IMG/VR virus record: IMGVR_UViG_3300023184_000030
Span: 1-64,000 of that record
Origin: a virus
Direction: 5' to 3' (one strand)
Length of the DNA: 64,000 bases
Shown: one piece after another, positions 7,764 through 63,525 of the stretch
Position numbering within the stretch: position 1 is the first letter of the stretch
How the letters are laid out: each line of letters opens with the position of its first letter
The notes under the pieces: model-generated
What the model saw: the letters and a program-made list of their open reading frames with translations, nothing else
What the model was told of the DNA's origin: nothing
The model's database searches: none
Made by a program: the position numbers and the translations under genes

Positions 7764-8171
7764 TTATTCCTCGTCTTCGTCTTCCTCTTCACCTTCTTCT
7801 TTTTCTCCGTCTTCAACCTCTGGTTTTTCGTCATCTTCAACTTCAACCTCTATGTTTTCTGGTTCGATCATTTCTTCTCCTGATTCTTCTGATGATCCTG
7901 CACCTTCCATTTCGTTTCTGATCCAATCAGCAACTTCTTGAATATCGTCTTTAGACGTAGCAATATGATCAGCAGCCCAATCGTGACCATTCTTAAGATA
8001 TTTATCAACTTCTGCTGGATCCATTTTAAGAATCTCCTCTATGTAATGCTTGATTGAAGTTAGGTTTGCGAAAAACATGTAGTGTTGTTGTCCACCCTCC
8101 ATGTTGTTGTCGTCTTCAGCTATTTCCATAGCTTTTTTCTTGAAGTCGTCAAATGATGCTATTCTTTCCAT
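7764..8171 (-). CDS. Acidic protein with capsid-targeting-like N-terminus and Glu-rich tail
   Basis: MERIASFDDF start; C-terminus EEGEEEDEDEE; GATATATA upstream at 8194-8201. Confidence 0.7.
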   Translation of the reverse strand: MERIASFDDFKKKAMEIAEDDNNMEGGQQHYMFFANLTSIKHYIEEILKMDPAEVDKYLKNGHDWAADHIATSKDDIQEVADWIRNEMEGAGSSEESGEEMIEPENIEVEVEDDEKPEVEDGEKEEGEEEDEDEE

Positions 8172-8193
8172 TTTTTAAATTTTTATGTTTATG

Positions 8194-8201
8194 TATATAT
8201 C
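8194..8201 (-). promoter_or_regulatory. Putative late promoter GATATATA (representative copy)
   Basis: Exact octamer just upstream of 12 genes (see findings). Confidence 0.65.
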
Positions 8202-8252
8202 TATTTTGATTATCTAATTGCGTAATCTGCGTATTTATCAGAATAGCTGAAT

Positions 8253-10604
8253 TTATTTAGTCCATCCCACGGACTCTATCGAATCCATTACCTGCTTGGC
8301 AGATATTCTTTTAGTGCATTCAAATTGTCTAGATGTTCCTTTATGTTCAGGACACCAGAACCAATCTCCTGGGTCAAATGGGAATTTTTCGGGCGAGTTA
8401 AAACAAGAGTTACAAACGTCTTCTCTATGGATTCTAAGACAATCCTCGTCAAACTCGTTATCTTTTTTAGTTACCCCTGATATCACAACCACCTTTTTAC
8501 CCAATGCATGTGCCACCCAAGATAATCCACTTGAAAGACCTACGAAGAATTCGCAATGTTCTATCCAGTGCATCATTTCTGTAAGTTCCATGCCTGTTTT
8601 ATTCATGCAGTTCTTAGGGATCTCGTTCCAATTTCCCTCCGTACCAAAGCTATAATATCGATCTATGCAAACCGGGGTTAGCCCCTTCTTAGTAAGCATG
8701 TCGCATAATTTTTCCCAGGAATTGTTATTGTTCCAATGCTTAGCCTGTGCAGTACTGTGGCTGGAAAAGCAAACATATTTCTTATTTAGTGGAGAAGGTT
8801 TGCCCGATGTCTTTAGTTGTGGCCTAACTTTGCCCATATCGGCTAATCCTAGCTGTTTAGCGAAGCCTATTTGTAAAGGTAAGTCATAGATATAGTCACA
8901 GCATATAATGTCTGTATAAGCGCTTAAATCGCCTGGCATTTGTATCAGATTCACGTTGGGATATAGATCTTTGTAGAGAAATCCAAAATTACCAACAACA
9001 TCACATTTAATTCCGTGTCTTTTAGCGTATTCGTCTGCATATGGCATGAACGATATGGTATCGCCCAATGCAGCTGTTTTTAAAATTATAAGTGGATTAT
9101 GGGATTTAACATAATTTGGGCTAAAGTAAGATATTATCTGATCTGTGTTTAGTACTCTATAAAATCCAGACTCGTCATCACCATTATATTTAAAATGCGG
9201 TACATAAATGTCTTCAAGGCATTTTGATTTTTCAGATATTGAAGGAATACACTTAGTCGAAGACACAAAGTCCTTGACAATGTCCTTGATGTCGTTTCTT
9301 CTTATATTACCGTCCTCTATTAACACGTGCTGATCTGTTAGATCCATCTTAATTGTTTTTAGAACTTCTGAGCCATCCTTTATAACAATCTCCCAATCGA
9401 TATACTCGTTCCTATCATCAGGAACAGTTGACCAAGCTCTTCTGCTTTTACCGACATTTAAAAATGATTTAATTGATCCGCTTCTAGCATCTCTGAAAAA
9501 TATAGCCTGGCCTTCTCCTTCCGGATATGAACACTTATAAAAATGCGGGTCTCTTTTAAACCAAGAGTAAAATCCATGATCCTCTCTCTTTTCTATTCTC
9601 TTAGGAATTGACAGATAGTCATTAAGTATAAGATTCTTCTGTGATATCTTACCAAATGATGCATAGTCCATCAGCATTCTCGAAACAACAACCTCCCACG
9701 ATATTAGGCTCCTCTCATCTTTACATTCAAGAACATACTGGGAATACCTTTGGAGAACTTCAGAAACACCATCAACTAGATCTACTGTGTTTGCGGTATC
9801 TATTCTTTTCATTCCTTTTAGATCAGCCTCCATTAAACCAACAACAGGAATACCCATCGCTATACTTTCAGTAACTGTTAGGTTAGGATGTCCTGCTTCA
9901 ATAGCTCCTGGATTTAAAAAGACGTGATGTTTTCTTATTTCAGTAAGCGAATCCTCATAATTCATGTCGTATATCACATTGAGTCTTATGTATGATGCTA
10001 TCACATTGTTCTTCTCGAAAAACTCCTTGTTGTTTTTACTAGGGCATATTATTGTTATAGGTAGATTCAGTACTGCTGCACACTCTATGCCTGGAATAAA
10101 TCCCTTTCTGTCGAATAATGGATCTCCTAAAAGACCATTGTTTGCCATCATGACTAAACTTGGACCTTTTTCAATAAGATCTTTGGATCTATCCTCAAAA
10201 TAATAATCTTCCAGATTAGCTCCGTGGCTAAGATATCTTAATTGTGGTAAAGAACCGAAATAATCAACAAGATATTTAGCATGGACAAATGACAGAACAG
10301 ATCCTTTTATAGCTTCCAGATTTTGTTTGTAAACATCAGAATCCTTTCCTAAATGATGTGCATGGTGATCGTGATGGGAAAAAACGTAAGGAATTCCTCT
10401 CTCTTTTAAAAGTAAAGCTAGATTAGCCATGTGTACATGTACAATGTCCCATTCTCCTAACCTAACATCATCCGTGTAAATTATTTCAACCTCATGACCA
10501 AGACCTCTTAATACCTTTGTGTATTCCCAGATTATTTTTTCTACTGCTCCCCATCCGTTAGGTGGTATAGGAATTACCCCTGGTGTGATTTGTGCTATTC
10601 TCAT
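8253..10604 (-). CDS. Fusion: GT4-type glycosyltransferase + autotransporter heptosyltransferase (BAHT/TibC-like) domain
   Basis: N-terminal IPP.GWGAVEK and EAGHPNLTVTES; C-terminal ALGDTI, STAQAKHWNN, FVGLSSGLSWVAH and Fe-ligand-like CNSC...WCP...C. Confidence 0.85.
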   Translation of the reverse strand: MRIAQITPGVIPIPPNGWGAVEKIIWEYTKVLRGLGHEVEIIYTDDVRLGEWDIVHVHMANLALLLKERGIPYVFSHHDHHAHHLGKDSDVYKQNLEAIKGSVLSFVHAKYLVDYFGSLPQLRYLSHGANLEDYYFEDRSKDLIEKGPSLVMMANNGLLGDPLFDRKGFIPGIECAAVLNLPITIICPSKNNKEFFEKNNVIASYIRLNVIYDMNYEDSLTEIRKHHVFLNPGAIEAGHPNLTVTESIAMGIPVVGLMEADLKGMKRIDTANTVDLVDGVSEVLQRYSQYVLECKDERSLISWEVVVSRMLMDYASFGKISQKNLILNDYLSIPKRIEKREDHGFYSWFKRDPHFYKCSYPEGEGQAIFFRDARSGSIKSFLNVGKSRRAWSTVPDDRNEYIDWEIVIKDGSEVLKTIKMDLTDQHVLIEDGNIRRNDIKDIVKDFVSSTKCIPSISEKSKCLEDIYVPHFKYNGDDESGFYRVLNTDQIISYFSPNYVKSHNPLIILKTAALGDTISFMPYADEYAKRHGIKCDVVGNFGFLYKDLYPNVNLIQMPGDLSAYTDIICCDYIYDLPLQIGFAKQLGLADMGKVRPQLKTSGKPSPLNKKYVCFSSHSTAQAKHWNNNNSWEKLCDMLTKKGLTPVCIDRYYSFGTEGNWNEIPKNCMNKTGMELTEMMHWIEHCEFFVGLSSGLSWVAHALGKKVVVISGVTKKDNEFDEDCLRIHREDVCNSCFNSPEKFPFDPGDWFWCPEHKGTSRQFECTKRISAKQVMDSIESVGWTK

Positions 10605-10607
10605 TTC

Positions 10608-12542: not shown

Positions 12543-12595
12543 TGTTTTGTATTTATAGGTTCTACTGTAAAAGTCAAATAAAATTTCGGGTAAAA

Positions 12596-23890: not shown

Positions 23891-24208
23891 TTAATACTGG
23901 AATCTTTGAACCTGATCTATACCGTTATAATTAATCTCCGGATTAGGTGCCATTATAACAGAAATACCATCTGATAAATCATATATGCTCTCGATGTAGC
24001 TTTGAACCTCATCTTTCTTTGACTTATCTATACCCAGCTGATTTAATGCATCTGTAGTAATTTGATCAACCGAATCCATAAAGTTTCCGCTATCATGAAA
24101 GTTGAAGTATTTCTCATATTTTTTTAGCCAGTTCCTAATCTCTGCTTGCTCTTCAGGATTAAGATCTAAGTCGTCCATGTAGTCGGAGAATTCTAGTATT
24201 TTTTTCAT
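23891..24208 (-). CDS. Hypothetical protein with capsid-targeting-like N-terminus
   Basis: MKKILEFSDY; GATATATA at 24213-24220. Confidence 0.65.
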   Translation of the reverse strand: MKKILEFSDYMDDLDLNPEEQAEIRNWLKKYEKYFNFHDSGNFMDSVDQITTDALNQLGIDKSKKDEVQSYIESIYDLSDGISVIMAPNPEINYNGIDQVQRFQY

Positions 24209-24237
24209 ACAATATATATCATCTAAATTACATTCAA

Positions 24238-24737: not shown

Positions 24738-26195
24738 TTATTTATTTTCAAAGTAGATTCCTGCATGGGCTTCACCCTTTGCTTTACCCGGACTATATTT
24801 ATCTTCAGGCTCTTCAGTAACCACGAATGCCTTATTAGGATTTACTATTAACCCCATTCTTCTCATTAGTGTTCTATTTGCTAAGAATGGCGTGCTTTTA
24901 TCTGTTCTGTCGACAGGGGAAACTTTAACATTAGGTATTAGGCTTCCGTTAAATTCAAGGTTAATTTCTATAATAGGTCTAGTGTGTGTATCCCTTCCAA
25001 TTTCAGCATCGGAATATCCGACAATATCATTAACAAACTTCTTATCCCCAACAGTCCAAAGAAGCTTTTTACCATTCTCTTCAATTTCGTCTGCATGAAG
25101 TGTGCAAGATTTTGCTCCATTTCCAGTATCGAATTTAGCTATCATATTACCAATTCCTGGTATAGATATTTGCTCGAGATAGCCAATTTCTAAGTTAGCA
25201 TAGCTCCAATTCTCCTTATCTAAAATGTAATCAAGCACATCGTTAACAATAGGTTTACCTATAGCCTTAGAAATACCCTCTGTTCCCGGAGATGAATTAA
25301 CCTCTAAAATATAAGGTTTCTTAGTTTTCTTATCTATCATGATATCTACCCCACACCAGTGACATCCAACTGCGTTAGCTGCTTTGCAAGCTATTTCTAC
25401 TAAATCCTCTGGGATTTCGTAATTTGATACAGATCCACCTAAAGAATAGTTAGTTCTAAAGTCTTTATCCACCGCCTCTCTTTTCATAGATCCTAAGATA
25501 ATACAGTTGTCTGAAGATGGTTTGATTGGATCGAAGTTCTTAATTATAACCTGAATTCTAAGGTCAAAGTTTGAATCAATTTTTTCCTGAACCAATATCT
25601 CACTGTTCTCATCAAGTTTTCTTATCGTTTGATAGACAGACTTTAAAGATGCGTAAGAATCCACAATAGAAACTCCAATGCCTTGTGTTCCCGATAAAAG
25701 CTTCATGATAATAGGAAATTTACCTCCTATCTTTTCTAATGCAGAATCGAGAAATTCCTCATTCGGTACTAAAGCATATTTAGGAACGGGTAATCCCGCT
25801 TCCTCCATGTATTGTGAAGTTATGTACTTGTTTTCGCAAACCTCGATGGATTCCAGTGTATTTACAGTGAAATATCGGTCAGCTTCTAATTGTGTCAGAA
25901 TTTGCTTAGTGTAAGAGTTTTCTATTACTCCTCTTCTTGGTATAATCACTGTTGAATTGGGATCGATTAGGATTCCCTCTTCCCCAGTTTTTAATAGGTG
26001 CCCATTATAAACTTTCTCTATTACCACCTGGTTTACATCAACCACGTAGCATTCAACACCTCTTTTTTCACATTGTTCTTCAAAAGACTTAGAGGTCTTA
26101 CTTCCCTGGGTATTCCCAGTCAGAACTATAACCTTAGTGGTTTCTCCTTTTGCTTCATTTAAAAAGGACCAAAAATCCAATACTTTACCGGCCAT
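24738..26195 (-). CDS. rimK: RimK-family ATP-grasp ligase fused to RimK-associated retropepsin-like protease
   Basis: GTQGIGV, VQE, DLRI, FRTNYSLGG, GVD, LEVNSSPG; C-terminal AKFDTG..S..LH...RP..DR. Confidence 0.88.
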   Translation of the reverse strand: MAGKVLDFWSFLNEAKGETTKVIVLTGNTQGSKTSKSFEEQCEKRGVECYVVDVNQVVIEKVYNGHLLKTGEEGILIDPNSTVIIPRRGVIENSYTKQILTQLEADRYFTVNTLESIEVCENKYITSQYMEEAGLPVPKYALVPNEEFLDSALEKIGGKFPIIMKLLSGTQGIGVSIVDSYASLKSVYQTIRKLDENSEILVQEKIDSNFDLRIQVIIKNFDPIKPSSDNCIILGSMKREAVDKDFRTNYSLGGSVSNYEIPEDLVEIACKAANAVGCHWCGVDIMIDKKTKKPYILEVNSSPGTEGISKAIGKPIVNDVLDYILDKENWSYANLEIGYLEQISIPGIGNMIAKFDTGNGAKSCTLHADEIEENGKKLLWTVGDKKFVNDIVGYSDAEIGRDTHTRPIIEINLEFNGSLIPNVKVSPVDRTDKSTPFLANRTLMRRMGLIVNPNKAFVVTEEPEDKYSPGKAKGEAHAGIYFENK

Positions 26196-26218: not shown

Positions 26219-26491
26219 CTATATATCACTTATCTGATCTCTTAAAAAGTGCTTGACCATTATTGCCTTCTTTAATTCATTCAGCTCCTGTACAATTTCA
26301 TGTTCTTCTTCCAAATAGAATAAGTCAATCATCTGATCCAGATTAAATAGCTTAGTTATTGAGCCTATAGAATTTGTTTGAATATACCGCTTTTTCCCCT
26401 TTAGAACTAGTTCGGCCTCCTCTAATATAAATCTACGATATAAATCATAGTTATCGAGTATGTTTTCCTGCGGCGCGTTTTCTCTCTCCAT
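26219..26491 (-). CDS. Small protein with degenerate UVR-like motif
   Basis: IDLFYLEEEHEIVQEL. Confidence 0.55.
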   Translation of the reverse strand: MERENAPQENILDNYDLYRRFILEEAELVLKGKKRYIQTNSIGSITKLFNLDQMIDLFYLEEEHEIVQELNELKKAIMVKHFLRDQISDI

Positions 26492-35772: not shown

Positions 35773-36309
35773 TTAAGCTTTAGTGAAATAAATTTCAAGC
35801 ACTTGATCCGGAGATATCTTAACTGTATAATAGTCTTTTAAGCTTGGCTCTCTTTCAACCTTACCTACAAAAGAAGCTGGGATACCGATTAGATAATCCT
35901 TTCCAATTTCCCTAACAACACCTTCGATAGCATATTCAGAGTCAACAAAAACGTTGATTTCATCTCTATATTCTTCATCTTCCGGTCTGTCAGCTCTTTC
36001 AATTCTGCTACCATGAATAGCTTGTTGTCTTTGAGCCATTCTTGCTCTTTCCTTTGTCATTAGTTCTTTAACATACTCAGGAGCGTTTTTACCTTGAGTT
36101 GGTAAATCTGCAATAACATTAACAGAAGCAAGCTCTCCAGATTCAACTTTAGATAAAAATCCTTCAATAACTGCAGGAATTTGAGTCCATTTAATTTCCA
36201 TTTCTGGTTTAGACTGTGTATTTTTGACGAATTCAGCCTCATCATAAACAGGGATAGCGCCTTCGTTTACTTGATTTTCGTAAGATTCGTATTCTAGTAA
36301 ATGTTTCAT
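35773..36309 (-). CDS. Hypothetical protein with capsid-targeting-like N-terminus
   Basis: MKHLLEYESYENQVNE; GATATATA at 36329-36336. Confidence 0.7.
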   Translation of the reverse strand: MKHLLEYESYENQVNEGAIPVYDEAEFVKNTQSKPEMEIKWTQIPAVIEGFLSKVESGELASVNVIADLPTQGKNAPEYVKELMTKERARMAQRQQAIHGSRIERADRPEDEEYRDEINVFVDSEYAIEGVVREIGKDYLIGIPASFVGKVEREPSLKDYYTVKISPDQVLEIYFTKA

Positions 36310-36336
36310 TAATTTGATATTTTTTCTTTATATATC

Positions 36337-38289: not shown

Positions 38290-38916
38290 TTATTTTTTTG
38301 ATTTCAAACCAAGTCTCTCTCTGACTTGTTTTAGTACTTTATCCTTTCCCTCGTTAGCTTCTACCTTTATAAGCTTACGACTTTTTTGATAAAAGTCTAA
38401 TAATGGAAAAGTCTTCTCGTGATATTCTTTGAATCTTTTCTCGACGATTTCTTCGCTAGCATCATCTTTTCTATTCTCTTCCTTAGCTCTGCTTTTTATT
38501 CTTTCCTTAGCTACCTTATCTGGAAGATCTAGGTAAATTGCATGGTTTAAACCTAAGCCCATTCTACCTAGAAGAGAATCTAGTCTTTTTGCTTGCTTTA
38601 TCGTTCTAGGAAATCCATCAAGAATAACATTAGAACTAGGATCAACCTTTTTAAGTTCTTTCCTAAGAATCTTGATCATCATATTATCGGGAAGTAGATT
38701 TCCAGCATCTATGATTTTTTTTATATCTTCGTCTTCTGAATTTCTTATAAGATCCCCTGTTGACAAATGTATAAAGTTATAGTCTTTTTTTAATTCTTTA
38801 GATAACGTTCCCTTACCTGATCCAGGTGCTCCTAATATAACAAGGATTTTACCCTGGTTATCAGGAAGCTGTCTTTCGTTTAGTGCAAAATCGTCAAAAG
38901 TTTTTATTCTTTCCAT
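38290..38916 (-). CDS. adk: Adenylate kinase (short-lid type) with capsid-targeting-like N-terminal extension
   Basis: GAPGSGKGT, HLSTGDLIR, LDGFPRT..QA, R.DD; start MERIKTFDDFALNE at ATG 38916. Confidence 0.92.
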   Translation of the reverse strand: MERIKTFDDFALNERQLPDNQGKILVILGAPGSGKGTLSKELKKDYNFIHLSTGDLIRNSEDEDIKKIIDAGNLLPDNMMIKILRKELKKVDPSSNVILDGFPRTIKQAKRLDSLLGRMGLGLNHAIYLDLPDKVAKERIKSRAKEENRKDDASEEIVEKRFKEYHEKTFPLLDFYQKSRKLIKVEANEGKDKVLKQVRERLGLKSKK

Positions 38917-38930
38917 CTTTTTAATATTTT

Positions 38931-41408: not shown

Positions 41409-41425
41409 TTTTTAGTTATTTTTAT

Positions 41426-42409: not shown

Positions 42410-42427
42410 TTTTTTAATTAATTTTTT

Positions 42428-42907
42428 TTAGTAATTGTTTTCTTGTCTTCTGATATTTTCTTTGTTCTTACTTAAATAATAATTATAAAGCTCATCTGGT
42501 GTCATACCGACAGAGACCATCATATTAAATAAGAAATGCTGAATATCAACCAGCTCCATTTTAAGTTCTTTAACATCCTCAGGTGACAGATCAGATATTT
42601 TCATGGAATAAGCTTTCTTATGATTACTTTTCCATGGTTTCCAAACTGCGTTACCGATTGATGTTTCTCCGTTATTAGAAACACCGCCTAAAGCGTCATA
42701 TGCTTCCGATATTTCGTCATCTATTGCTCTGGTGTTCCAGAGCCAGAAGTCCTTAATCTCTCCCAGTGAAAGATTTGCGAAATCGTAACCATAGACTTTC
42801 TCCTGAGTGTTCTTTTGGAGTGTCATTAATGTGCCCAAGTGATGCGTGGACTTTACGTAGTCATCCTCAACGGGAAGATCTTTGCATTGATTGTCTGTAT
42901 TTGCCAT
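42428..42907 (-). CDS. Dimeric all-alpha dUTPase/dCTPase (T4 gp56-like)
   Basis: DEISE, WKPWK, MELVDIQHF, KNKENIRRQ..NY. Confidence 0.8.
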   Translation of the reverse strand: MANTDNQCKDLPVEDDYVKSTHHLGTLMTLQKNTQEKVYGYDFANLSLGEIKDFWLWNTRAIDDEISEAYDALGGVSNNGETSIGNAVWKPWKSNHKKAYSMKISDLSPEDVKELKMELVDIQHFLFNMMVSVGMTPDELYNYYLSKNKENIRRQENNY

Positions 42908-43008
42908 ATTTGTGATTTTTTGACTAGGTTTTTTTGTCTATGTCTCCACCACCGGGTTTTTATATATCGATCCGATTCCGGGGGACAGGGACCTGACTTG
43001 CTTTATTT

Positions 43009-44409: not shown

Positions 44410-44491
44410 TTTTTTTATTTACGTATGTTTTATACCAATACCATCTTTTTATTTCGATCTTTACTTAAGTTTCAGGAAGATATATAAAAAT

Positions 44492-44797
44492 ATGAAGAAT
44501 TTAAAAAATATTTCCCAGTTTATCAACGAATGGCTCGATTCACCTGGTAGTATAGACGTTCCCGGCCAGAATTCGGAAATTAGAGTCAACTCAAGGAATT
44601 ATAAAACACAGAATCAGCAACTTCCTGAAGTTGTGGATGCCATGTTTGAAGCAGCATATTTTCATGATTTTCTAGACGAAGAGGGTAAATCTGAGAAATT
44701 CAATAAATTTTTAGACGAAGGTAAAAAATCGGGTGCTCAGGTAACAAGCTATATAAAAGACTCTTTTAAAGACAAGTCATCTAAAAAGAGAGATTAA
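44492..44797 (+). CDS. Hypothetical protein with capsid-targeting-like N-terminus
   Basis: MKNLKNISQFINEW from ATG 44492; GATATATA at 44479-44486. Confidence 0.65.
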   Translation: MKNLKNISQFINEWLDSPGSIDVPGQNSEIRVNSRNYKTQNQQLPEVVDAMFEAAYFHDFLDEEGKSEKFNKFLDEGKKSGAQVTSYIKDSFKDKSSKKRD

Positions 44798-44842: not shown

Positions 44843-45841
44843 ATGTACTCAAAAATATACGACTTTTGTAAAGTTAAAAATTTAGGAAATTGCTACAGAA
44901 ACGGTGAAATCCCAACCCCAAGGGTAAACTTCATATTGGATCTTTGTGATCAAATGGGACTTAAATATGAGTTGGACACTTTTGCCGACAACAAATCTAA
45001 TGCTGGTGAGGAGATGACAATGAGGGATTTCCGCTATATACTAGATACTTTGTCACCAGATAAAAGAAAAGAGGCTTTAGCTCTATATAAAGAATTCAAC
45101 CAAAAAGTAGAAGATCTTGATTCAGACTTCGAAGAATCAGGGTTAGAAGACGATGATGAGGCTATCGATTTTCACGAAGAGCAATACTACCAGCTGGAAG
45201 ATGAATACTCTGAAAAATTAAAAGCAATTGCAGGAGAGATAAAAAGAGGAGTTAACAACTACTTCAATATAGTTCTTCCTGGATCATCAGATAAATTCGT
45301 CGTAGCACATCATGATATCGTAAATAAAGATTCAGATAATGCTAATGACAATTCTTGCTCAGTTATAAACGCTTTAATGATTAAGAAGCTAAGACCTGAG
45401 GTAAACGTCGTTATATTAGATGGAGAGGAATTCGGAGGTATAGGATCTAACCAATTAGCAGAAAGAATTAAAGCAGGTGATTTCAAATGTAAATGGGTGC
45501 TTAATTTAGAGCTAACAGGTAAAGGGGGAAAAAGCTTCTTCGTTGGAGCTATGGGAACACCTTTAACAGATTGGATCGCAAATAGATTTGAATGTCCAAT
45601 CGTAAATGTGCCATTCAATGATTCGGTGATCTTTAAGAAATATGGGATAAATAGCACAGTGATTAATCCACTACCTGTAACAGAGGAAAAAAGCCCAGTT
45701 ATAAATAAGGATGGGGAATACTTAAACTTTAAAATGTTATTCAACTGTCACAAAATGACAGACTCTGTAGACACTATAGATCCTAAAGATATGGAAGAAT
45801 TCGTTAACGAGGTTTGCTTAAAAATAATAGACGAAGCTTGA
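44843..45841 (+). CDS. M28-family zinc peptidase-like protein with acidic helical insertion
   Basis: VAHHD, ANDNSCS, DGEEFG, NLE, CH...D. Confidence 0.75.
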   Translation: MYSKIYDFCKVKNLGNCYRNGEIPTPRVNFILDLCDQMGLKYELDTFADNKSNAGEEMTMRDFRYILDTLSPDKRKEALALYKEFNQKVEDLDSDFEESGLEDDDEAIDFHEEQYYQLEDEYSEKLKAIAGEIKRGVNNYFNIVLPGSSDKFVVAHHDIVNKDSDNANDNSCSVINALMIKKLRPEVNVVILDGEEFGGIGSNQLAERIKAGDFKCKWVLNLELTGKGGKSFFVGAMGTPLTDWIANRFECPIVNVPFNDSVIFKKYGINSTVINPLPVTEEKSPVINKDGEYLNFKMLFNCHKMTDSVDTIDPKDMEEFVNEVCLKIIDEA

Positions 45842-45942
45842 GACGTATAAAACTATTCGAAGAATTTATAGAGTATGTTATGCCAGTAAAAAAGCGTAAC
45901 ATGAAAAACATAGTCATTATACCTAATTGGAAGGTCTATTAA
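45838..45942 (+). CDS. Candidate 34-aa micro-ORF with capsid-targeting-like motif
   Basis: TTG start overlapping the M28 stop; MRRIKLFEEFIEYVMPVKKRNMKNIVIIPNWKVY. Confidence 0.45.
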   Translation: MRRIKLFEEFIEYVMPVKKRNMKNIVIIPNWKVY

Positions 45943-47231: not shown

Positions 47232-47804
47232 TTAGAAATATCTTTCTTCGAAAAATAAAAGATCTAATTTGTTGTCAATGTTAATTAGCATAAGAGCATT
47301 TAGTAGATCTGAGTATTCCCCAACAGCTTCATTTTGTATATCGACATACTTTTGGATGAAATTGAATGTTGCTGGGTGAACTTCACAAAGTGCATGTTGC
47401 ATAGCAGCATAATTCTGAAGTAATTTATATTCGATGTCGTATGCCTCGTCAATAATGTTAACCAAAGAATCAAATTCATTGGGTACGATTACTGCAGGAA
47501 TTTGGGGAAGTATATTCCACTGTGTTAAATAATCCTGTAGACCTTTAGCATGATCCAATTCAGATGCTGCCTCAGCTTCAAAATAAGCAGTTGCTTTTTT
47601 GTAATTTGCGTTTCTACACCAGTTAGCTGCATTTCTGTATGTATAGTGAGCAGTATATTCATCTGCTATTCTTTTTTCGAATACTGCAACGATATCAGCA
47701 GGAAGAGATTTTGGTGTGCTGATCATCGGTGTAGCTGTTATTTCTACCCCTTCTAGCTCTAGCCCTTCATTAGTACCGCCTTTGAAATGTTTAAATGTTT
47801 TCAT
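47232..47804 (-). CDS. Ferritin-like protein with capsid-targeting-like N-terminus
   Basis: DEYTAHYTY, F...A.SE.DH, IE, Q.E ferroxidase pattern; start MKTFKHF; GATATATA at 47827-47834. Confidence 0.85.
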   Translation of the reverse strand: MKTFKHFKGGTNEGLELEGVEITATPMISTPKSLPADIVAVFEKRIADEYTAHYTYRNAANWCRNANYKKATAYFEAEAASELDHAKGLQDYLTQWNILPQIPAVIVPNEFDSLVNIIDEAYDIEYKLLQNYAAMQHALCEVHPATFNFIQKYVDIQNEAVGEYSDLLNALMLINIDNKLDLLFFEERYF

Positions 47805-47835
47805 GTATTAACTTTTTTTACATTACTATATATCA

Positions 47836-50022: not shown

Positions 50023-50844
50023 TTATTTGAATATTTTTTTAATATCCTCTTTTTTCTCTAAGAAACGTGCAACATCATTTTGGAATGACTTAAATAGCTC
50101 ATCGTCGCTTTCCTTGTACGATTTACCTGTAAATAATTCAAGATATCTCATTGCATTTAGAGTTGATTTTCTAGTATTATCACCATAATCAGAATTTTTT
50201 AGATCATCCTTATCGATCATTCCAATCTCAGAAAGTCTTTCCTTATATTTTTTAACCGCATCTTTATCAGGATCCTTAGATGTAAATGTTAAAATACCTT
50301 TCTTATCTTCTTTCTTATCACCTTTATCCTTTAGAGCTTCAACTTTTTTTATTTCCTCTTTTTTCTTAGCAATAACCTTTGAAGCCTCGATTTTATAAAG
50401 TTTTTCTTCATCCTCATCAGCCTCGTCTTTCTTTGGTAATTCATCATAAGAATCCTCTTTAACACCGGCTATGGCATATGCTACGTAACTTCCGTCAGAA
50501 TTCATTTTAAATAACCTTGTATCTCTTAACGTAGTAGAATTAGCTTCACCGGATAGAGATTTGCCATCTTTTTCAAGCTTGGATTTAAGATTAATAAAAG
50601 ACGCCCCGCGTGCAGATTCAATGGCTTGACCCATATCTGGTGATTTTGCTTCGCCAAAAGCTTTATATTTACTGCCCTTGCACTCATCCTCCATTTTTTT
50701 CTTAACAGATTCAGCGTCATCCTCTTTTTTTATTTCCTCTGGCTTTGGATCTTTTTCTTTTTTAAACTTATTTTTTAGCTTAGCAAAAAACCCCGAGCCC
50801 TCTTTTTCGTTTAAAAATCTATCAAAATCTAATACTTTTTCCAT
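50023..50844 (-). CDS. Highly charged protein with capsid-targeting-like N-terminus
   Basis: MEKVLDFDRFLNEK. Confidence 0.7.
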   Translation of the reverse strand: MEKVLDFDRFLNEKEGSGFFAKLKNKFKKEKDPKPEEIKKEDDAESVKKKMEDECKGSKYKAFGEAKSPDMGQAIESARGASFINLKSKLEKDGKSLSGEANSTTLRDTRLFKMNSDGSYVAYAIAGVKEDSYDELPKKDEADEDEEKLYKIEASKVIAKKKEEIKKVEALKDKGDKKEDKKGILTFTSKDPDKDAVKKYKERLSEIGMIDKDDLKNSDYGDNTRKSTLNAMRYLELFTGKSYKESDDELFKSFQNDVARFLEKKEDIKKIFK

Positions 50845-51315: not shown

Positions 51316-51546
51316 TTAGTCTAAGATTTGTTTTATGTTGCTTTTAAAAATACGAACTATATTACCGTCCGGATTCTTTGTGATATATCCTATTATATCA
51401 TTGTATATATCATATATGGGGGACTGTATTAGTAGTTTTCTGTTTAGGTTGTCCAGTATCCATTTATTTAGGATTTTGCTTTCCTCCTTTGACATATCCC
51501 TTTTAATGGGTTCAAACTCAAATCCGCTTGCTGAACAATTACACAT
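51316..51546 (-). CDS. Hypothetical protein
   Basis: Packed ORF. Confidence 0.55.
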   Translation of the reverse strand: MCNCSASGFEFEPIKRDMSKEESKILNKWILDNLNRKLLIQSPIYDIYNDIIGYITKNPDGNIVRIFKSNIKQILD

Positions 51547-51971
51547 TATCTATAATTACCTCTTTCTTGTTTGCGTTTAATATACTGCCAAAGATATCTT
51601 AATCCCTTTGCATACTCGGAAGGTCTACTAAAGGGCTTGCCGAAGTCTTTTATATCGTTTCCGTTACCCTCCATTCTTTCCCCTGGATTATCCTCGTTCT
51701 TTAGCGGATTATATCTTCTAACCTTTCCCGTTGGATGAATAGTGTAGAATACTTTATCGTGGCCCTTCTCGTTTTTATTATTTGTTGATCTAACGAATTT
51801 TAGGGTGTTATTGATTTCCTGCTGGTGCGAGGTATCCTCTTTGAAGCCAAGCTCTATTAGTCTTTTATAGTCAACAGTTTTTCTAACAAGATCAAGGTTT
51901 AAAGATCTTCTAGAGTCGGATTTGTATTCCTCATCCGGACTATATTTTTCATACTCTAATAGAAACTTCAT
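51546..51971 (-). CDS. Hypothetical protein with capsid-targeting-like N-terminus
   Basis: MKFLLEYEKY; AATATATA upstream. Confidence 0.65.
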   Translation of the reverse strand: MKFLLEYEKYSPDEEYKSDSRRSLNLDLVRKTVDYKRLIELGFKEDTSHQQEINNTLKFVRSTNNKNEKGHDKVFYTIHPTGKVRRYNPLKNEDNPGERMEGNGNDIKDFGKPFSRPSEYAKGLRYLWQYIKRKQERGNYR

Positions 51972-51982
51972 GCTCTATATAT

Positions 51983-52390
51983 TTACTTTAGTTCATCAGG
52001 TTTCATGCGGTTACCCTGACCCCAGTAATCCTCACCGCCATAAAAAGTGCAAATCTCTTCATTCTGCTCTATATCTCTAATTGCATAGAAGAAAAAAGTC
52101 TCCCTTGGTTCAGAACTTTTCCATGCTGCATTCGGAGAATTTGAGTGGTTGTAAAGTGCACCGTATCCTGTTGGGATAACCTGTTTGTTTGGGGAAGCAC
52201 TAGGCCACATAAATCGATAGTGCTCTAATACGTGCCAGCATGATTCGTTTACATGGAGATCCAGTCCTATAACTGTGCATTCTTCTATGATCTCTCCCTT
52301 CCCGATTTTTGATTTAGCAAAAACACCATAGCCATGAATTGGGCTAGGCGACACGTAAACTTTCTCTGGTAAATAAATTTGTACTGCCAT
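51983..52390 (-). CDS. SET-domain protein-lysine methyltransferase
   Basis: SPIHGYGVFA...I.KGE, YNHSNSPN, AIRDIEQNEEICTFYG. Confidence 0.9.
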   Translation of the reverse strand: MAVQIYLPEKVYVSPSPIHGYGVFAKSKIGKGEIIEECTVIGLDLHVNESCWHVLEHYRFMWPSASPNKQVIPTGYGALYNHSNSPNAAWKSSEPRETFFFYAIRDIEQNEEICTFYGGEDYWGQGNRMKPDELK

Positions 52391-53774: not shown

Positions 53775-54338
53775 TTATCTGCTAATTAACACAGATTTTT
53801 TTGTTGATCCTTGTTGAACTGACCAATTTTCTCCCAAGTAAGAGATGATAATAGATTTCATAAACTCAATATATTCTCCCTTGCCATCGAATTCTAAATT
53901 GTCCTGTATTTCATCATATATTCTATTGATCTTAGGATTTGCTTCTAGGTAGCTGCTTAAACATTTTGATGCATATTCCATTATTCTAGAAACCTCGTTT
54001 CCTCCTGCTTTGAACTTCATAGTGTTAGGCTGCGGAACTTCCTCTTTCTCTACCGCTATGTCTTCTATTAATTCATGGGAAATCTCATTTAATGTAAGTA
54101 CACAGTATGAATTTTTAGGTCCATCTATAACTTCATTATTAGAGTATTTACCGATTATGAAATGAAATCCTTTTTCATCTCCACCTTTTTCGTCTTCTAT
54201 ATTAAAGAAGTAGTTGTAAAGATCACCATTTTTTACCAACAGGAAAGGTGAAGTTCCGAATCCATCCGATTCATGCATAGATCTTGAATCCTGATCATTT
54301 ATTTTGAATTGTTCGAATGTAGATATTATTCTTCCCAT
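53775..54338 (-). CDS. Hypothetical protein with capsid-targeting-like N-terminus
   Basis: MGRIISTFEQFKIND. Confidence 0.65.
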   Translation of the reverse strand: MGRIISTFEQFKINDQDSRSMHESDGFGTSPFLLVKNGDLYNYFFNIEDEKGGDEKGFHFIIGKYSNNEVIDGPKNSYCVLTLNEISHELIEDIAVEKEEVPQPNTMKFKAGGNEVSRIMEYASKCLSSYLEANPKINRIYDEIQDNLEFDGKGEYIEFMKSIIISYLGENWSVQQGSTKKSVLISR

Positions 54339-54347: not shown

Positions 54348-56369
54348 TTATTTTTCTATATTTTCTTTTAAAGCTTTCGTCTCAAGCTCTGCAATTTCGC
54401 TCTCTGTTATAATCTCTTCAGATTCTTTAATTCCCTTTCCGTTAATCGAAGAAAGTAAACTATTATAGAATGAAGAAACCCCCTGAGGTACAAGCTTTTT
54501 AAATGCTAGGAAATCTTCGTTCCCTATGGAATTTCTAATTTCATTTCCTGTTGTTGTTCTTGGAGTTTCCACAACTTCTATTTCTCCGGGAAAATCACCA
54601 CCAGCTTTTTTAAGATATTCAGACTGTTTCTTATAATCTTCTACCCTATCATCACCAGCTCCTATCAGATTAACCTGATATCCCATTTTTTTTGCTATAC
54701 CGTATATAACACCCAATAACCCTTTTTTAGTTGTAAAGTATCCCTCGATTAGTCCAGGGTGATCTTTAACTACTGCTTCCATATATTTGCCAATAAGATC
54801 CTCGTTAAATGGGGATTTCCCCGATTTATTATGTCCAGGATTAACTACAGCAACTATACTAGGTAAACCATTTTTCTCTTTAAGAAATTTTGCCATCTTT
54901 ATATGGCCGTTGTGGAAAGGCTGAAATCTGCCAACCAAAATATTAACTCCCTTAAGCTCTGGCTTTTTGTCTTCATCCTTTTCATCTAATTTAGGTTTTT
55001 CTATATCCTTCTTAGTTGTATCTATTGTTTCCAAAGCCGAGATAAATTCATTATATGAATAGAAGTGATCATCATCCTTAGTGCTCTCTTCAGATTCACT
55101 GGTTACATAATCAACTTTTCTAGGCTTTAAATTATTCTTTTTAAAATCTAAGAATGAAGGCATTTCTGACTCCATCACAGCAGGTTTTTTTGTTTTAGTC
55201 TCTACCCTTTTTTCTATTGATGATACGAGTAAATTGAATTGGTCTATTATACCAGGTGTGATTATTCCGCCTGCTCTCTTTTTAATCTTTCTGAATGAAT
55301 TAAGTATAAGCTTAAATAGGGATTCGAAAGCTTCATCTTCTTCCAAATACTTTAGTACTCTTCTGTCAGTTATAAGATTCCTATTTAGTCTAAAGTCTTC
55401 CTTCTTTAAATACTCAGGCTCTTGAAAATCTGCCCCTTTGTATTTGTATCCATATTCGTCTAGGAATTTAGAGAATACATCAGAAATAAAAGAAATATAT
55501 CTCTCATCCTCGGTAGTTCCTGCTATTTCAAAAGTATCCACACCATTTTCTAGTATGAAGTTCATCACGTCCAGTATAGTAATACCTAAGAAATCGCTAG
55601 GTTTTTCCTCTGTTCTTTTCTTAGCCTTTGATTTTGCAAGCTCAGTAAAAACTGGATCTACCATTTTAGATAATATAGGTTCTTGCTCTTCGTCTTCTTC
55701 ACCAAATCTAAATACTATTCCTTCTATTGCCTTTTCCAAATCTGTATTCAGAGCAGTCTTTTTTAATTCCGGATTAAGTACCCCGATAATAAAAACAACA
55801 AAACTTCTTGTTTTATATTCAGTTACAAGTTCTTCGAAAGGAGTTCTTAGAAAATCCAGTATTCTGTCTTTCTGCTCCTTTTCAAGATATCCCTGAAAAA
55901 TAATAGGTGGTCTTTCAACACCTAATAGATCTGCCCAAGTATCTAGGTCATTCTTACCCTGGATCGTTCCCTTAGGTTTTCCACTAGAATCTTTCTTATG
56001 AACATAAGAAAGTATTAAATTGTTCTTAGGAACTTCATCATAGACAATCTCAACCGGAGCACTATTTGCAAAGTACTCTAATCCAAATCTCCATCCTCTG
56101 GGGATTTCGTTTATTATATGGGGAGGCAGTGATTCGATATACTGTATTGGTTTTTCGTAGTACTTCATTAAAGTCCTATCTACCAAGGTTATCGGATTTC
56201 TCTGATCTCTCTTATAAAAATTAAATTTGCCTGTTTCACTATCCCTTTCGAATATGAAAGCAGACCCGTCCATCTTCTCGTTAACGGTAACATAAGTATT
56301 GAAAAGATTATCAACGAAATCTTTTCCTTTCTTATTATAGAGATCATATAAATGACTAATTCCTGCCAT
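54348..56369 (-). CDS. Fusion: ligase-like covalent nucleotidyltransferase domain + HIGH-type cytidylyl/adenylyltransferase
   Basis: VNEKMDGS (motif I KxDG), EGIVFR (motif IV); C-terminal VGRFQPFHNGH, SPF, GDDR, TGNEIR. Confidence 0.75.
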   Translation of the reverse strand: MAGISHLYDLYNKKGKDFVDNLFNTYVTVNEKMDGSAFIFERDSETGKFNFYKRDQRNPITLVDRTLMKYYEKPIQYIESLPPHIINEIPRGWRFGLEYFANSAPVEIVYDEVPKNNLILSYVHKKDSSGKPKGTIQGKNDLDTWADLLGVERPPIIFQGYLEKEQKDRILDFLRTPFEELVTEYKTRSFVVFIIGVLNPELKKTALNTDLEKAIEGIVFRFGEEDEEQEPILSKMVDPVFTELAKSKAKKRTEEKPSDFLGITILDVMNFILENGVDTFEIAGTTEDERYISFISDVFSKFLDEYGYKYKGADFQEPEYLKKEDFRLNRNLITDRRVLKYLEEDEAFESLFKLILNSFRKIKKRAGGIITPGIIDQFNLLVSSIEKRVETKTKKPAVMESEMPSFLDFKKNNLKPRKVDYVTSESEESTKDDDHFYSYNEFISALETIDTTKKDIEKPKLDEKDEDKKPELKGVNILVGRFQPFHNGHIKMAKFLKEKNGLPSIVAVVNPGHNKSGKSPFNEDLIGKYMEAVVKDHPGLIEGYFTTKKGLLGVIYGIAKKMGYQVNLIGAGDDRVEDYKKQSEYLKKAGGDFPGEIEVVETPRTTTGNEIRNSIGNEDFLAFKKLVPQGVSSFYNSLLSSINGKGIKESEEIITESEIAELETKALKENIEK

Positions 56370-56379: not shown

Positions 56380-57312
56380 TTAACCAATTCTGTTTATTTC
56401 TGTTGGTATTTCTAGTCCAGCTCTTTCAAGATATTCCAAAAATCTTTGTTTTATTTCAGGTAATCTTTCATGAAGATCAAATTTTGGATCTTCTATTATC
56501 TTTAATAAAGCCTCAAACGTTTTAACATCCTCTGGTTTATATCCTGTACCTAAAGCAAAGTCTATAAATTCTTGAGGATTTCTTGTGACAAATCTTTCAC
56601 TTCCCTCTAATTTCTTAGAGTGTTTTAATCTAGGAATTCTAGTTCCTTTATATGATTTAGTGTGCCAGTATAAGCCATCACTAAGAATCAATACAGGAGC
56701 ATTGTAATCCATGATTTCCCCAGCTTCATCTGTATCTATTACTTCTTTTCTAGCGGATAGTATGGCTGATAAAAGCCAGTTTCTGTGTGCTGATTTGTAT
56801 TTGCTCTCATCCACTTTATAATCGGGGGAGTAATAAATAAAATCTGCCCATTCCATGCTAGATAAAGGAATAAGATCCAATTGGACTATACCTTTTTGTA
56901 GATCACCTTCTATTGGCCATCCAAGGCTAACAACATTTAATCCCTTAAGATAATTTATTTCCGGTTCAAATCCAAGCGCTTCTGCAAGTTGAGTTCTTAA
57001 TATAGTATCAACAGTTGCAGAGCATTCTTTAGTTCCTACCCCATGTTCTTGTGAAAATGAAGTTGCATCGTAGCCAAGATCAAGATCTCCTGATGTGTCA
57101 TCAGGATTCTTTTTCTTACCTATGCTTCCAATTATAATATACTCTTCTCCGTATTTGTCAACATCTATACCTAGAAGCGGGAAAAGAATTTCTTTGATGC
57201 TATCAAGTGTTTTAGGGAATTCATCCTCACGAATTCTCCTTGAGGTTTTTATGGCAGCGCCACCCTCAAATATCTTAGAAAATCCTGAAAAGTTTAAAAT
57301 CCTATTACTCAT
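56380..57312 (-). CDS. Pol-beta-superfamily nucleotidyltransferase with capsid-targeting-like N-terminus
   Basis: IIGSIGKK...SGDLDL, VQLDL; start MSNRILNFSGF...FEGG. Confidence 0.7.
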   Translation of the reverse strand: MSNRILNFSGFSKIFEGGAAIKTSRRIREDEFPKTLDSIKEILFPLLGIDVDKYGEEYIIIGSIGKKKNPDDTSGDLDLGYDATSFSQEHGVGTKECSATVDTILRTQLAEALGFEPEINYLKGLNVVSLGWPIEGDLQKGIVQLDLIPLSSMEWADFIYYSPDYKVDESKYKSAHRNWLLSAILSARKEVIDTDEAGEIMDYNAPVLILSDGLYWHTKSYKGTRIPRLKHSKKLEGSERFVTRNPQEFIDFALGTGYKPEDVKTFEALLKIIEDPKFDLHERLPEIKQRFLEYLERAGLEIPTEINRIG

Positions 57313-57851
57313 TATTTCTTTTTCATTTTATCGTAATATCTTCCCATAGCACCGGTTAAATAGCTGCTATATTGTTTCTCGTCGTCTGTTTTAGGATTAA
57401 GCGGATCATAGTTTTTACCGAATGATTTTTTACCTTTAAGAGCACCTGATTTATAAAAGTCTTCCGCATCTTTTTGGGTAACGTTCTTATCCCCTATTTT
57501 TTCCTTCTCCCAATCATCCAAGACCTCTTTCTTTTTAGAATTAAGATCAGCTTTAGACATTTTAGAATAACTATCTTTAGAATCCCCTTTGAAGAAAAAA
57601 TCAGAAATAGCAGCACCTGAGCTAGCTATTAATCTTCCAAACAGCGGAACAATCGAATTTATTCTATTTATTGTTGACCTTCCACCATCATCTGGACCTG
57701 GAGTAGTATCTCCTCTAAGCTTGTCATACTCATATTCCATATTTGCATCCACTTTTCTAAGCCATCTGCTTAGTTTAGTGTTGCCCTTATAAAAATCGGT
57801 TTCACCTTCTGTTAGTGATTCGGTAAAGGCATCAAATTTTTTTATCCTCAT
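57312..57851 (-). CDS. Hypothetical protein with capsid-targeting-like N-terminus
   Basis: MRIKKFDAFTE; GATATATA at 57868-57875. Confidence 0.65.
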   Translation of the reverse strand: MRIKKFDAFTESLTEGETDFYKGNTKLSRWLRKVDANMEYEYDKLRGDTTPGPDDGGRSTINRINSIVPLFGRLIASSGAAISDFFFKGDSKDSYSKMSKADLNSKKKEVLDDWEKEKIGDKNVTQKDAEDFYKSGALKGKKSFGKNYDPLNPKTDDEKQYSSYLTGAMGRYYDKMKKK

Positions 57852-57882
57852 TTCTGGAGTTTTTCTTTATATATCCCTAAAT

Positions 57883-59421: not shown

Positions 59422-59433
59422 TATCTATATATC

Positions 59434-61189: not shown

Positions 61190-61194
61190 AGGAT

Positions 61195-61223: not shown

Positions 61224-61237
61224 GGTTAGGTTATCTA

Positions 61238-62215: not shown

Positions 62216-62327
62216 GTTTTTTTAAAATTTAATTTTTGTTTTACTTTTTGTTTTTGTTTTACTTTTTGTTTTCTGTTTGTTTCTCTTAATTTCCTATTTT
62301 TCCATTAAAATTTTCTTTTTTTTCTAC
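62216..62327 (-). promoter_or_regulatory. Unstructured A-rich leader of SSB gene (candidate autogenous operator)
   Basis: About 110 nt, strongly A-rich, with repeated AAAAAGTAAAACAAAAA units. Confidence 0.5.
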
Positions 62328-62568
62328 TTATATCTTTGTGATGTTGTATTCTTTTGTAATTAGCCTACATGTACGAGGACTGTTTTGTGCTGAATGTGTT
62401 TTTATTAGAGCACTAGTTATGTCTCCGTAGCGAGCTTGTAAATGACCGTTACGATTGACGTGGGATGCTGTTATCTTTGGGATAATGCTAAATGTATTTA
62501 AAGATAGGGAAGATGCCTCTCCTGCAGAGCATAAATGCTCTGACCTTTTAGAAAAATAGTTTAGATTA

Positions 62569-63276
62569 CTAGAGGCTTGCTGTGTGTTCTGTTTCAAAAT
62601 TTCCTTTAATTCCATAAATTTCCTTTAATTCTTTCTTTAAATACAATGTTATCCAAGTTGCGTCCACAATATCATCAATCGGTTTGTTAACTACCTTAGC
62701 TGGTGTTATCCACTCAGTTTTGTTAGTTTCTAATATATTAGCAAAGATTGCTAAATTTGTTTCATCCTCTTTGTAAATACATAGAGAATTATAAAGTTCG
62801 TCCTTTTTAGCATTACCCTTTAAGGCAAACTTTTTAATTGAGGTAGGGGAGAAAACGTGGAACTTGTCTGCTCCAACCCTATCTATTATTTTTTTCCTTA
62901 GTAATGCGGTAGCCATAGAGATATCTATAAGTGCATTACCGTTAGAGGAGAAGCTTAATCCCTCCATTGCAACATGGAAATCAGAATCACCCATAACTTC
63001 CTCTATGCTATTCCAAAACGAATCAACAATTTCCAAGAAGTAAACTATTTTGATTCTTTCCCTGCCTGTGTAATCATCCGGCAATTCCTTCTTATCGAGG
63101 AAGATAAATTTAAAATCCTTCTCCATTTCTAAAACGGCAAAGGGTTTCTTTAAACTCTTTCTTAGCGATTCTGGGCTTCTATCTGATCTGGTTAAAGATC
63201 CCCAAATATACTTACCGTCCTTATAGCAGCAAAATGCAGGAGAGTTTATAGAAAAATCTATTCCTACTATATTCAT
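62569..63276 (-). CDS. RuvC-like Holliday junction resolvase / RNase H-fold nuclease
   Basis: IVGIDFSINSPA, AMEGLSF, PTSIKKFA..GNAKK, DDIVDA. Confidence 0.8.
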   Translation of the reverse strand: MNIVGIDFSINSPAFCCYKDGKYIWGSLTRSDRSPESLRKSLKKPFAVLEMEKDFKFIFLDKKELPDDYTGRERIKIVYFLEIVDSFWNSIEEVMGDSDFHVAMEGLSFSSNGNALIDISMATALLRKKIIDRVGADKFHVFSPTSIKKFALKGNAKKDELYNSLCIYKEDETNLAIFANILETNKTEWITPAKVVNKPIDDIVDATWITLYLKKELKEIYGIKGNFETEHTASL

Positions 63277-63291
63277 ATAAAAATTTAGGGA

Positions 63292-63525
63292 TTAAGAAGG
63301 GTGAACAATTTGACCAACCGCTCCTGTATATCCATAAACTTTAGAAAGCTTCTCGAAACAAGATTTCATTTGTGCATCCGTTAAACAGTTTACCAAGTCG
63401 TTTAATACTCTTTGGTCGTTACCTGCAGCAGATACCAAAAGGTTTTTCATTTGGTCCTTTTCACCACCCAGTGGCTGACCATACTTCATTTCGTTTAATT
63501 CTTTTACGTCTGAAAACTTTTTCAT
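63292..63525 (-). CDS. Small protein with capsid-targeting-like N-terminus
   Basis: MKKFSDVKELNE; GATATATA at 63545-63552. Confidence 0.6.
   Translation of the reverse strand: MKKFSDVKELNEMKYGQPLGGEKDQMKNLLVSAAGNDQRVLNDLVNCLTDAQMKSCFEKLSKVYGYTGAVGQIVHPS

Follow-up and report, generated by a model that had tools for sequence, protein, structure and literature searches.

A candidate T4-type capsid-targeting leader on enzymes and other proteins of an uncultivated giant phage

Introduction

Capsid targeting of the kind found in bacteriophage T4 has been known since 1996. In T4, the first 10 residues of the internal protein IPIII suffice for targeting, which depends mainly on residues 4 and 7; processing is governed by residues 8 and 10, and the cut made by gp21 falls behind L/I-X-E (PMC9026906). 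Leaders that resemble this capsid-targeting sequence (CTS) have been suggested to let T4-like phages package varied proteins (PMC9026906), and in the phiKZ-like phages the inner-body or ejection proteins gp175 of phiKZ and gp245 of SPN3US carry propeptides (PMC5694885, PMC9026906). Here we analyze a 64,000-nt stretch of DNA, the first 64 kb of the IMG/VR phage contig IMGVR_UViG_3300023184_000030 (G000), which we refer to as the window. Thirteen genes of the window, and six more elsewhere on the contig, begin with a shared N-terminal sequence of the form M-x-[KR]-[ILV]-x-x-F-x-x-F, followed by [LIV]-x-E and mostly by [LIV]-N-E. We refer to this sequence as the tag, and find that it is most likely a targeting propeptide of the T4 type that a gp21-type protease would remove.

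Results

The tag is enriched at protein N-termini in three genomes

The original prediction for this DNA had proposed a T4-like capsid-targeting signal on 14 genes. All 14 N-termini are present; 13 of the genes are credible, and the one at 45838 is doubtful for its length, its start codon and its lack of an upstream promoter-like box. A genome-wide check, in which all N-termini were searched de novo by expectation maximization, returned the motif among its top solutions as x-[RK]-I-L-x-F-x-x-F. The loose pattern proposed originally gave 27 matches by itself against 13.8 expected, and since this enrichment is merely twofold, a stricter position weight matrix (PWM) was required. Scored leave-one-out against 49,002 internal windows, 15 of 173 N-termini lie above the 99.9th percentile; about 1.6 would be expected to do so, and one of the 15 is a membrane-like false hit. 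The tripeptide [LIVT]NE occurs within the first 20 residues of 14 genes (4.1 expected). The weaker copies at 35773, 51546, 47232, 44492 and 63292 are upheld by their orthologues, which have strong PWM scores or the full F-x-x-F.

The same PWM applied to two complete relatives finds 41 N-termini in G001 and 28 in G002, with 3.9 expected in each, and the enrichment is about tenfold across the three genomes. Tenacibaculum phage PTm1, a jumbo phage of Bacteroidota that is not related and was used as a control, has 3 such N-termini against 2.7 expected, so that a general N-terminal bias in AT-rich phages of Bacteroidota does not account for the signal. Some pairs of tagged proteins do look paralogous, those at 35773 and 51546 both reading LLEYExY, and the resemblance might then reflect chance or the common descent of paralogue N-termini. 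This we consider to have almost no likelihood, being contradicted both by the statistics of the three genomes and by the diversity of folds: one leader stands on proteins as unrelated as adenylate kinase (Adk), ferritin, an ATP-grasp ligase, a Pol X-like protein and SLT, CHAP and GDPD proteins.

The tagged genes of the window are given below, with a slash at the candidate cut; "box" denotes the late-promoter-like sequence GATATATA, and the orthologues are those in G002.

7764..8171, minus strand: tagged protein, 135 aa; MERIASFDDFKKKAMEIAE, candidate cut after IAE19; PWM 12.0; box 8194-8201; orthologue MDNKIASFEEFKKMASGFNE; no Pfam or PHROG match
23891..24208, minus strand: tagged protein, 105 aa; MKKILEFSDY; PWM 10.0; box 24213-24220, 4 nt before the ATG; tag retained in the orthologue
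24738..26195, minus strand: tagged RimK-type ATP-grasp ligase, 485 aa; MAGKVLDFWSFLNE/AKGE; box 26220-26227; orthologue MSNKKILNFFSFLNE/AKSE
35773..36309, minus strand: tagged protein, 178 aa; MKHLLEYESYENQVNE/GAIPVY; box 36329-36336; orthologue MKHLLEFESYSPVNE, PWM 15.0
38290..38916, minus strand: tagged adenylate kinase, 208 aa; MERIKTFDDFALNE/RQLPD; ADK domain from residue 27
44492..44797, plus strand: tagged protein, 101 aa; MKNLKNISQFINE/WLDSPGS; the sole plus-strand GATATATA (44479-44486) lies 5 nt upstream; orthologue MKNVKNFSNFISIEVNE/WLDAPGS
45838..45942, plus strand: doubtful gene or remnant, 34 codons, TTG start; (M)RRIKLFEEFIE...; no box
47232..47804, minus strand: tagged bacterial-type ferritin, 190 aa; MKTFKHFKGGTNE/GLELEG; box 47827-47834; predicted post-Glu peptide GLELEGVEITATP
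50023..50844, minus strand: tagged K/E/D-rich, highly charged protein, 273 aa; MEKVLDFDRFLNE/KEGSG; PWM 9.9; second gene behind box 51404-51411
51546..51971, minus strand: tagged protein, 141 aa; MKFLLEYEKYSPDEE; AATATATA 4 nt before the ATG; orthologue MNNLLKFKDYDPSEE, PWM 14.2
53775..54338, minus strand: tagged protein, 187 aa; MGRIISTFEQFKINDQDSRSMHE/SDGFGTSPF; PWM 9.1; last gene of the late operon from box 57868-57875; orthologue MTKIESFGQFINRINE/ADGFGTSPF
56380..57312, minus strand: tagged probable nucleotidyltransferase of Pol-beta/Pol X fold, 310 aa; MSNRILNFSGFSKIFE/GGAAIKTSRR
57312..57851, minus strand: tagged protein, 179 aa; MRIKKFDAFTE/SLTE/GE; PWM 12.9; box 57868-57875; orthologue MTIKSFDKFINE/N
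63292..63525, minus strand: tagged small protein, 77 aa, a short form like T4 IPI; MKKFSDVKELNE/MKYGQPLG; box 63545-63552; orthologue MKTFSDLKKVNE/MKYGQPLY

The doubtful reading frame at 45838 overlaps the stop codon of an M28 peptidase gene, and its product would start with RRIKLFEEFIE, a very good match to the tag. An identical peptide is encoded in G001, where the differences are synonymous only. The frame may be what remains of a gene or may encode a small tagged protein. In G001, about 10 tagged genes, mostly on the plus strand, cluster at 101,000-115,000, a region absent from the present contig that resembles a hypervariable "internal protein" island.

The tag matches the T4 determinants and ends at a protease-type site

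As the original prediction stated, the T4 internal proteins share such a leader: the T4 record gives MKTYQEFIAE for IPII and IPIII and MKTFKEF...ITE for IPI. The positions conserved in the tag are the determinants known from T4, namely two aromatic residues (F/Y/W) separated by two others and then [LI]-x-E. Among the PWM matches of the relatives, [LIVT]-N-E lies at most 16 residues past the second aromatic in 23 of 69, compared with 1.85% of background windows, and many of the remaining matches carry [LIVM]-x-E.

For Adk, 119 homologues of the tagged protein span 67-99% identity. All 119 have I, V or L three residues before the first Phe; at the first aromatic position 115 have F and 4 have L, and at the second all have F. 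At the putative cut, P3 is always L (86) or I (33), P1 is always E, and P2 is occupied by 8 different residues. For the nucleotidyltransferase (NTase)-like protein, the junction can be placed in 99 of 120 homologues, and the leader ends in [ILVM]-x-E immediately before an invariant GG. Orthologues at 50-70% identity drift in both the length and the sequence of the leader, and conservation begins immediately past the Glu, with GGAAIKTSRR, DGFGTSPF, WLDxPGS, MKYGQPL and RELPD as the conserved starts; this matches the expected signature of a propeptide junction. In the 53775 protein the start of conservation directly past the Glu follows from the orthologue pair, ADGFGTSPF in G002 against SDGFGTSPF here.

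The leaders are 12-23 aa long and lie at the extreme N-terminus, outside the folded domain. The claim that the tag precedes the catalytic domain holds for Adk, the RimK-type ligase and ferritin, whose domains start at residues 27, 21-22 and 33, respectively. In the AlphaFold2 (AF2) model of the NTase-like protein, residues 1-17 are detached from the fold, with a predicted local distance difference test (pLDDT) value below 50.

A leader that stands apart from the folded domain and terminates in a protease motif could also be a removable propeptide serving to time or regulate enzyme activity, in the manner of a zymogen or as a late destruction mark, with no capsid loading. That several of the tagged enzymes would be useful in the cytoplasm fits such a role. 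We nevertheless regard it as very unlikely. The upstream I-x-x-F-x-x-F is conserved as well and corresponds to the targeting, not the processing, determinants of T4, and the same motif recurs in the scaffold repeats and the capsid propeptide described below. Moreover, gp21-type proteases, as known from T4, act within assembled proheads.

Head protease, scaffold and capsid protein

The contig encodes a candidate for the processing enzyme outside the window.

125728-127692 of the contig (L002:13729-15693), minus strand: protease-scaffold fusion, 654 aa

The N-terminal third of this protein is a gp21-family protease (PF03420, 32.5 bits, above the cut-off; phrog_207, E=4e-37) that matches T4 gp21 itself by BLAST at E=3e-6. 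Its GELDHPE and SSRAAGS align with GELNHPP and SSRGLGS of gp21, which we take to be the sites of the catalytic His and Ser, and its start, MPQLQSINE-9, parallels LIE-9 of T4 gp21. The motif [LIV]NE is found at residues 7-9, 196-198 (the protease/scaffold boundary), 497-499, 529-531 and 550-552, and all five sites are kept in G002 at 75% identity despite changed flanks. The capsid protein aligns over its full length with T4 gp23 (E=3e-11, ~22% identity). It contains YETWSPLIE18 and YCHYHSLNE43/SAG, a segment identical in three genomes, in which E43 is the last Glu before the conserved core. These cleavage sites in capsid protein and scaffold are predicted ones.

Scaffold residues 297-478 form 13 tandem 14-residue repeats of exact period, Y-x-x-Y-[LIV]-[AG]-E-N-[LV]-D-K-x-I-x, and the repeat number is also 13 in G003 and G004. 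One repeat contains YTEYIAE, to be set beside YQEFIAE of T4. Because the tag resembles one scaffold repeat, we propose that tagged proteins may co-assemble with the scaffold by mimicry. A complex prediction for scaffold residues 285-480 with Adk residues 1-40, made from a 5-row alignment and without controls, gave no answer (score 0.00) and speaks neither for nor against this proposal. Three coiled-coil proteins whose genes follow directly on the capsid gene carry the tag in G000, G003 and G004, as do the two of them that are called in G001/G002. The contig further encodes, outside the window, a head-closure protein and a protein with a weak match to a DNA-end-protector protein (phrog_429, E=3e-4).

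In phage PTm1 (NC_049340.1; L062:37853-41467), protease and scaffold are likewise fused, the fusion protein has many [LIV]NE sites, and the sites in the capsid protein read TINE/N and IINE/S. PTm1 may use another leader, for example MGLLDHVNE or MKLFETINE.

Tagged genes lie behind a late-promoter-like box

The copies of the box in the window, the short-spaced copies and a sigma factor gene elsewhere on the contig are as follows.

8194..8201, 17619, 24213, 26220, 36329, 42961, 47827, 51404, 52865, 57868, 59426 and 63545, minus strand: exact copies of GATATATA
44479, plus strand: exact copy of GATATATA
24209-24220, 51972-51983, 59422-59433 and 44479-44491 of the window, and 134016-134026 of the contig: boxes at short spacing
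143036-143395 of the contig: gp55-type late sigma factor (phrog_234, E=4e-15)

The window thus holds 13 copies of GATATATA, with 5.4 expected; none of 100 shuffles reaches 13, and all copies lie in gene orientation. On the contig as a whole, 30 copies are on the coding strand and 1 is on the other, and copies stand 4-37 nt before the start codons of the tail, baseplate, capsid, protease and sheath operons; the portal operon is preceded by the box as well. From this promoter-like box and the gp55-like sigma factor, we infer that the tagged genes are late.

Many of the tagged genes had been said to sit directly behind the box, and this was borne out. Eight of the 13 boxes in the window directly precede a tagged gene and 2 more head operons that contain one; tag and box co-occur in the window at Fisher p = 7e-6, counting a box within 60 nt upstream. 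At the level of operons, Fisher p in the window is 2e-7 to 7e-5, and on the contig all 14 strong minus-strand tags (18 with the weaker ones) are in box-headed units (p = 8e-7 and 1e-8, respectively), under a definition of the late unit that is generous and counts the reductase operon as late. The motif is not equally common in replication proteins, as none of the 102 genes outside late units, replication genes included, is tagged. Nucleotide-metabolism genes other than Adk carry no tag.

Adk has no box of its own here, and its orthologues at 70% identity have one. An exact GATATATA (42961-42968) stands 60 nt before a dUTPase-like gene that heads a run of putative nrdB and nrdA genes, assigned by size and N-terminal sequence, and then adk (38290-42907). 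Either ribonucleotide reductase is also transcribed late, or the 42961 box is no promoter.

In five genes the box ends 4-5 nt before the ATG, and in most others the distance is 16-26 nt. A distance so short and constant points to leaderless late transcripts. With tagged genes probably late and some boxes so close to the start codon, the shared N-terminus might be an expression feature of late genes, such as a leaderless or Shine-Dalgarno-less translation start. We judge this to be highly improbable, given that it is the amino acids that are conserved: F, F, L/I and E change rarely or never, whereas the spacing varies and P2 is free. Furthermore, the highly expressed late structural genes are untagged, and PTm1 has no such bias.

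Enzymes among the tagged proteins

Four of the tagged window proteins resemble enzymes or other proteins of known type. Adk matches Pfam ADK (PF00406) at E=1.8e-40 over profile positions 1-149 of 151 and has the P-loop GAPGSGKGT. The protein at 24738 had been called a RimK-protease. The RimK part of that name stands (PF08443, E=2.5e-32), with a PreATP-grasp plus ATP-grasp ligase domain at residues 21-326 and a match to PDB 7qyr (E=3e-26, query residues 22-326); the protease part is unsupported, as the further C-terminal stretch of about 160 aa has no hidden Markov model match over residues 327-485. The ferritin, of the bacterial non-heme type, matches PF00210 (E=4.7e-17) and PDB 5c6f (E=2e-15), its four-helix-bundle fold runs from about residue 33, and the residues that we take to be iron (ferroxidase) ligands (E, Y, ExxH, E and Q) are aligned and conserved in the 5c6f alignment. 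Its tag is kept in relatives at 81-92% identity and is gone at 53%. The ferritin gene is accessory, being absent from G001 and G002, tagged in four other relatives and untagged in more distant contigs of 42-49 kb.

The assignment of the 56380 protein as a nucleotidyltransferase is upheld only in part, by a GS-x11-DLD motif (GSIGKKKNPDDTSGDLD) and a weak Pol X fold match. The AF2 model has a pLDDT of 90.6, and the best Foldseek matches are Pol lambda, Pol beta and TdT, which are weak (E ~2e-3, TM ~0.4). The protein gave no sequence match in Pfam, PHROG or the PDB, and the Atlas yields a lead to NTP_transf_2. Nine other tagged window proteins are without known relatives, and for most of the tagged proteins of unassigned function Pfam and PHROG searches gave nothing.

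The tagged proteins of the relatives include three SLT transglycosylases, a CHAP peptidase and PG_binding_1, GDPD and LRR proteins, and the cargo set is partly variable among relatives. Peptidoglycan hydrolases are known as virion-borne entry enzymes, and the wall-cutting tagged enzymes would fit such a role. They would also fit a tag that directs proteins to some other place, be it the lumen of the tail or baseplate, the cell envelope or a chaperone; the tag is a basic-hydrophobic segment, and a DnaJ-like phage protein, identified by its N-terminal sequence alone, is encoded at 31281-32324 of the window on the minus strand. Such a destination appears very unlikely. The tag is charged and amphipathic, with no Sec or TAT signal, and it ends in a head-protease motif common to the capsid protein and the scaffold. 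Tail and baseplate proteins are without the tag, and the three tagged coiled-coil genes lie directly behind the capsid gene.

One further gene of the late operon from box 57868-57875 was considered as a candidate for the tag.

54348..56369, minus strand: untagged 673-aa protein; Pfam CTP_transf_like, PHROG cytidyltransferase

This protein has EKMDG near its N-terminus and a cytidylyltransferase/NMNAT-like HIGH domain at residues 431-636. A tag ending in VNE at residue 31 was rejected, as the Glu in question sits in EKMDG, presumably a ligase-type KxDG adenylation motif.

The contig and its relatives

The contig is 172,849 bp long, with 35% G+C and a CheckV completeness of 63%, and the minus strand carries nearly all genes of the window. 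The source is an uncultivated giant phage of Bacteroidota with only distant kinship to T4. The nearest records by capsid protein are the Lak megaphages, the Tenacibaculum phages PTm1 and PTm5, Flavobacterium phage MaF61 and Sphingomonas phage records. The close IMG/VR relatives are complete genomes of 270-430 kb, and the contig matches roughly the right-hand half of a G001-like genome (G001 is 348 kb). A megablast comparison of the window with isolated phages gave no match. An S21 gene, the marker of a bS21-encoding freshwater lineage (10.1101/2021.10.11.463225), was not found on the contig.

Discussion

The shared N-terminus is best explained as a T4-type capsid-targeting propeptide. The tagged proteins would be made late in infection, and the amphipathic [ILV]-x-x-F-x-x-F would dock them on the scaffolding core of the assembling prohead, the likely docking partner being the scaffold half of the protease-scaffold protein. 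After shell closure, the gp21-family protease would cut after the Glu of [LIV]-x-E, usually [LIV]-N-E. The cut would free the mature protein inside the head, and the same protease would trim the capsid protein and chop the scaffold. We infer docking, cleavage, residence in the head and delivery with the DNA into the host from the sequences; delivery into the host we hold more tentatively, as having somewhat less than an even chance.

Several points weigh against this explanation. About 4 of the 19 contig tags are without a clean [LIVM]-x-E (23891, 51546 and 114542, with T at P3 in ferritin and 116216). The timing of Adk is uncertain because its gene is the last of the ribonucleotide reductase operon and is not itself preceded by a box here, and the generous late-unit definition lets that operon in. 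A cultured relative with the tag was sought and none was found, PTm1 showing no excess. Metabolic enzymes are, to our knowledge, an unusual capsid cargo, and an assembled ferritin is a 24-subunit shell, an odd thing to send down a tail.

A bolder proposal, which we consider rather doubtful, is that the tag is a free-standing scaffold repeat. Cargo, capsid propeptide and 13-repeat scaffold would then share one helix-packing code, one protease specificity would dissolve them all, and roughly 20-30 proteins, among them the RimK-type ligase, Adk, ferritin, the Pol X-like protein and wall-cutters, would be pre-loaded and delivered with the DNA for immediate takeover. We know of no receptor for the T4 CTS. 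The 13-repeat scaffold is a concrete candidate for the partner of the tag, and if the scaffold-repeat proposal is true, the long-sought receptor of the T4-type CTS would be named.

What is new here is the lineage, the scale, the recognizable enzyme cargo and a repeat-built scaffold that shares the motif. We know of no case of Adk, ferritin, a RimK-type glutamate ligase or a Pol X-like transferase as virion cargo. A literature search, whose ranking was swamped by unrelated papers, turned up no report of a CTS in Bacteroidota phages. If the tag works as in T4, the head-packed, perhaps injected, protein set of an abundant freshwater phage lineage could be read from sequence. The determinants match those of T4 mutagenesis despite a capsid protein identity of ~22%, which suggests an ancient targeting code that is common to T4-related phages in general. 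A short, portable capsid-loading tag would also be of practical use in protein delivery.

Encapsulins offer a comparison in that a short terminal cargo-loading peptide brings enzymes, ferritin-like ones included, into an HK97-fold shell. Those peptides are usually C-terminal, bind the shell and stay uncleaved, and there is no scaffold or protease and no DNA in the compartment. We rejected an encapsulin-type peptide because the tag stands at the N-terminus and has a protease site at its end. T7 gp16 and other virion-borne lytic transglycosylases are core proteins of the virion interior, which cut the cell wall once ejected; the T7 core proteins are not known to be loaded by a cleavable N-terminal tag. 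The tagged SLT-domain proteins of the relatives are reminiscent of them.

The phiKZ-like phages offer another comparison. There, as would be the case here, a gp21-related protease cuts many head-internal proteins after Glu, and the propeptides are believed to direct these proteins into the prohead. They differ in their S/A-X-E motif and in propeptides that often exceed 100 residues and share no short common tag, whereas the leader here is uniform and short, with L/I at P3.

The likeness to T4 is close. The T4 CTS is, like the tag, a portable N-terminal leader of 10-20 residues with aromatics three apart and L/I-x-E (here, for example, MEKVLDFDRFLNE). In both, the tag genes appear to be late and are scattered among non-structural genes, and both have a gp21-family protease, a gp23-type capsid protein and a gp55-type sigma factor. 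The differences are of scale and of parts. There are ~19 tagged proteins on a partial contig here and ~20-30 per complete genome, as opposed to a handful in T4; P2 is mostly Asn, and the leader is 3-6 residues longer. The cargo of T4 is small basic proteins, in contrast to the recognizable enzymes found here, to which the relatives add peptidoglycan hydrolases. Finally, in this Bacteroidota phage, the protease is fused to a scaffold built of 13 CTS-like repeats.

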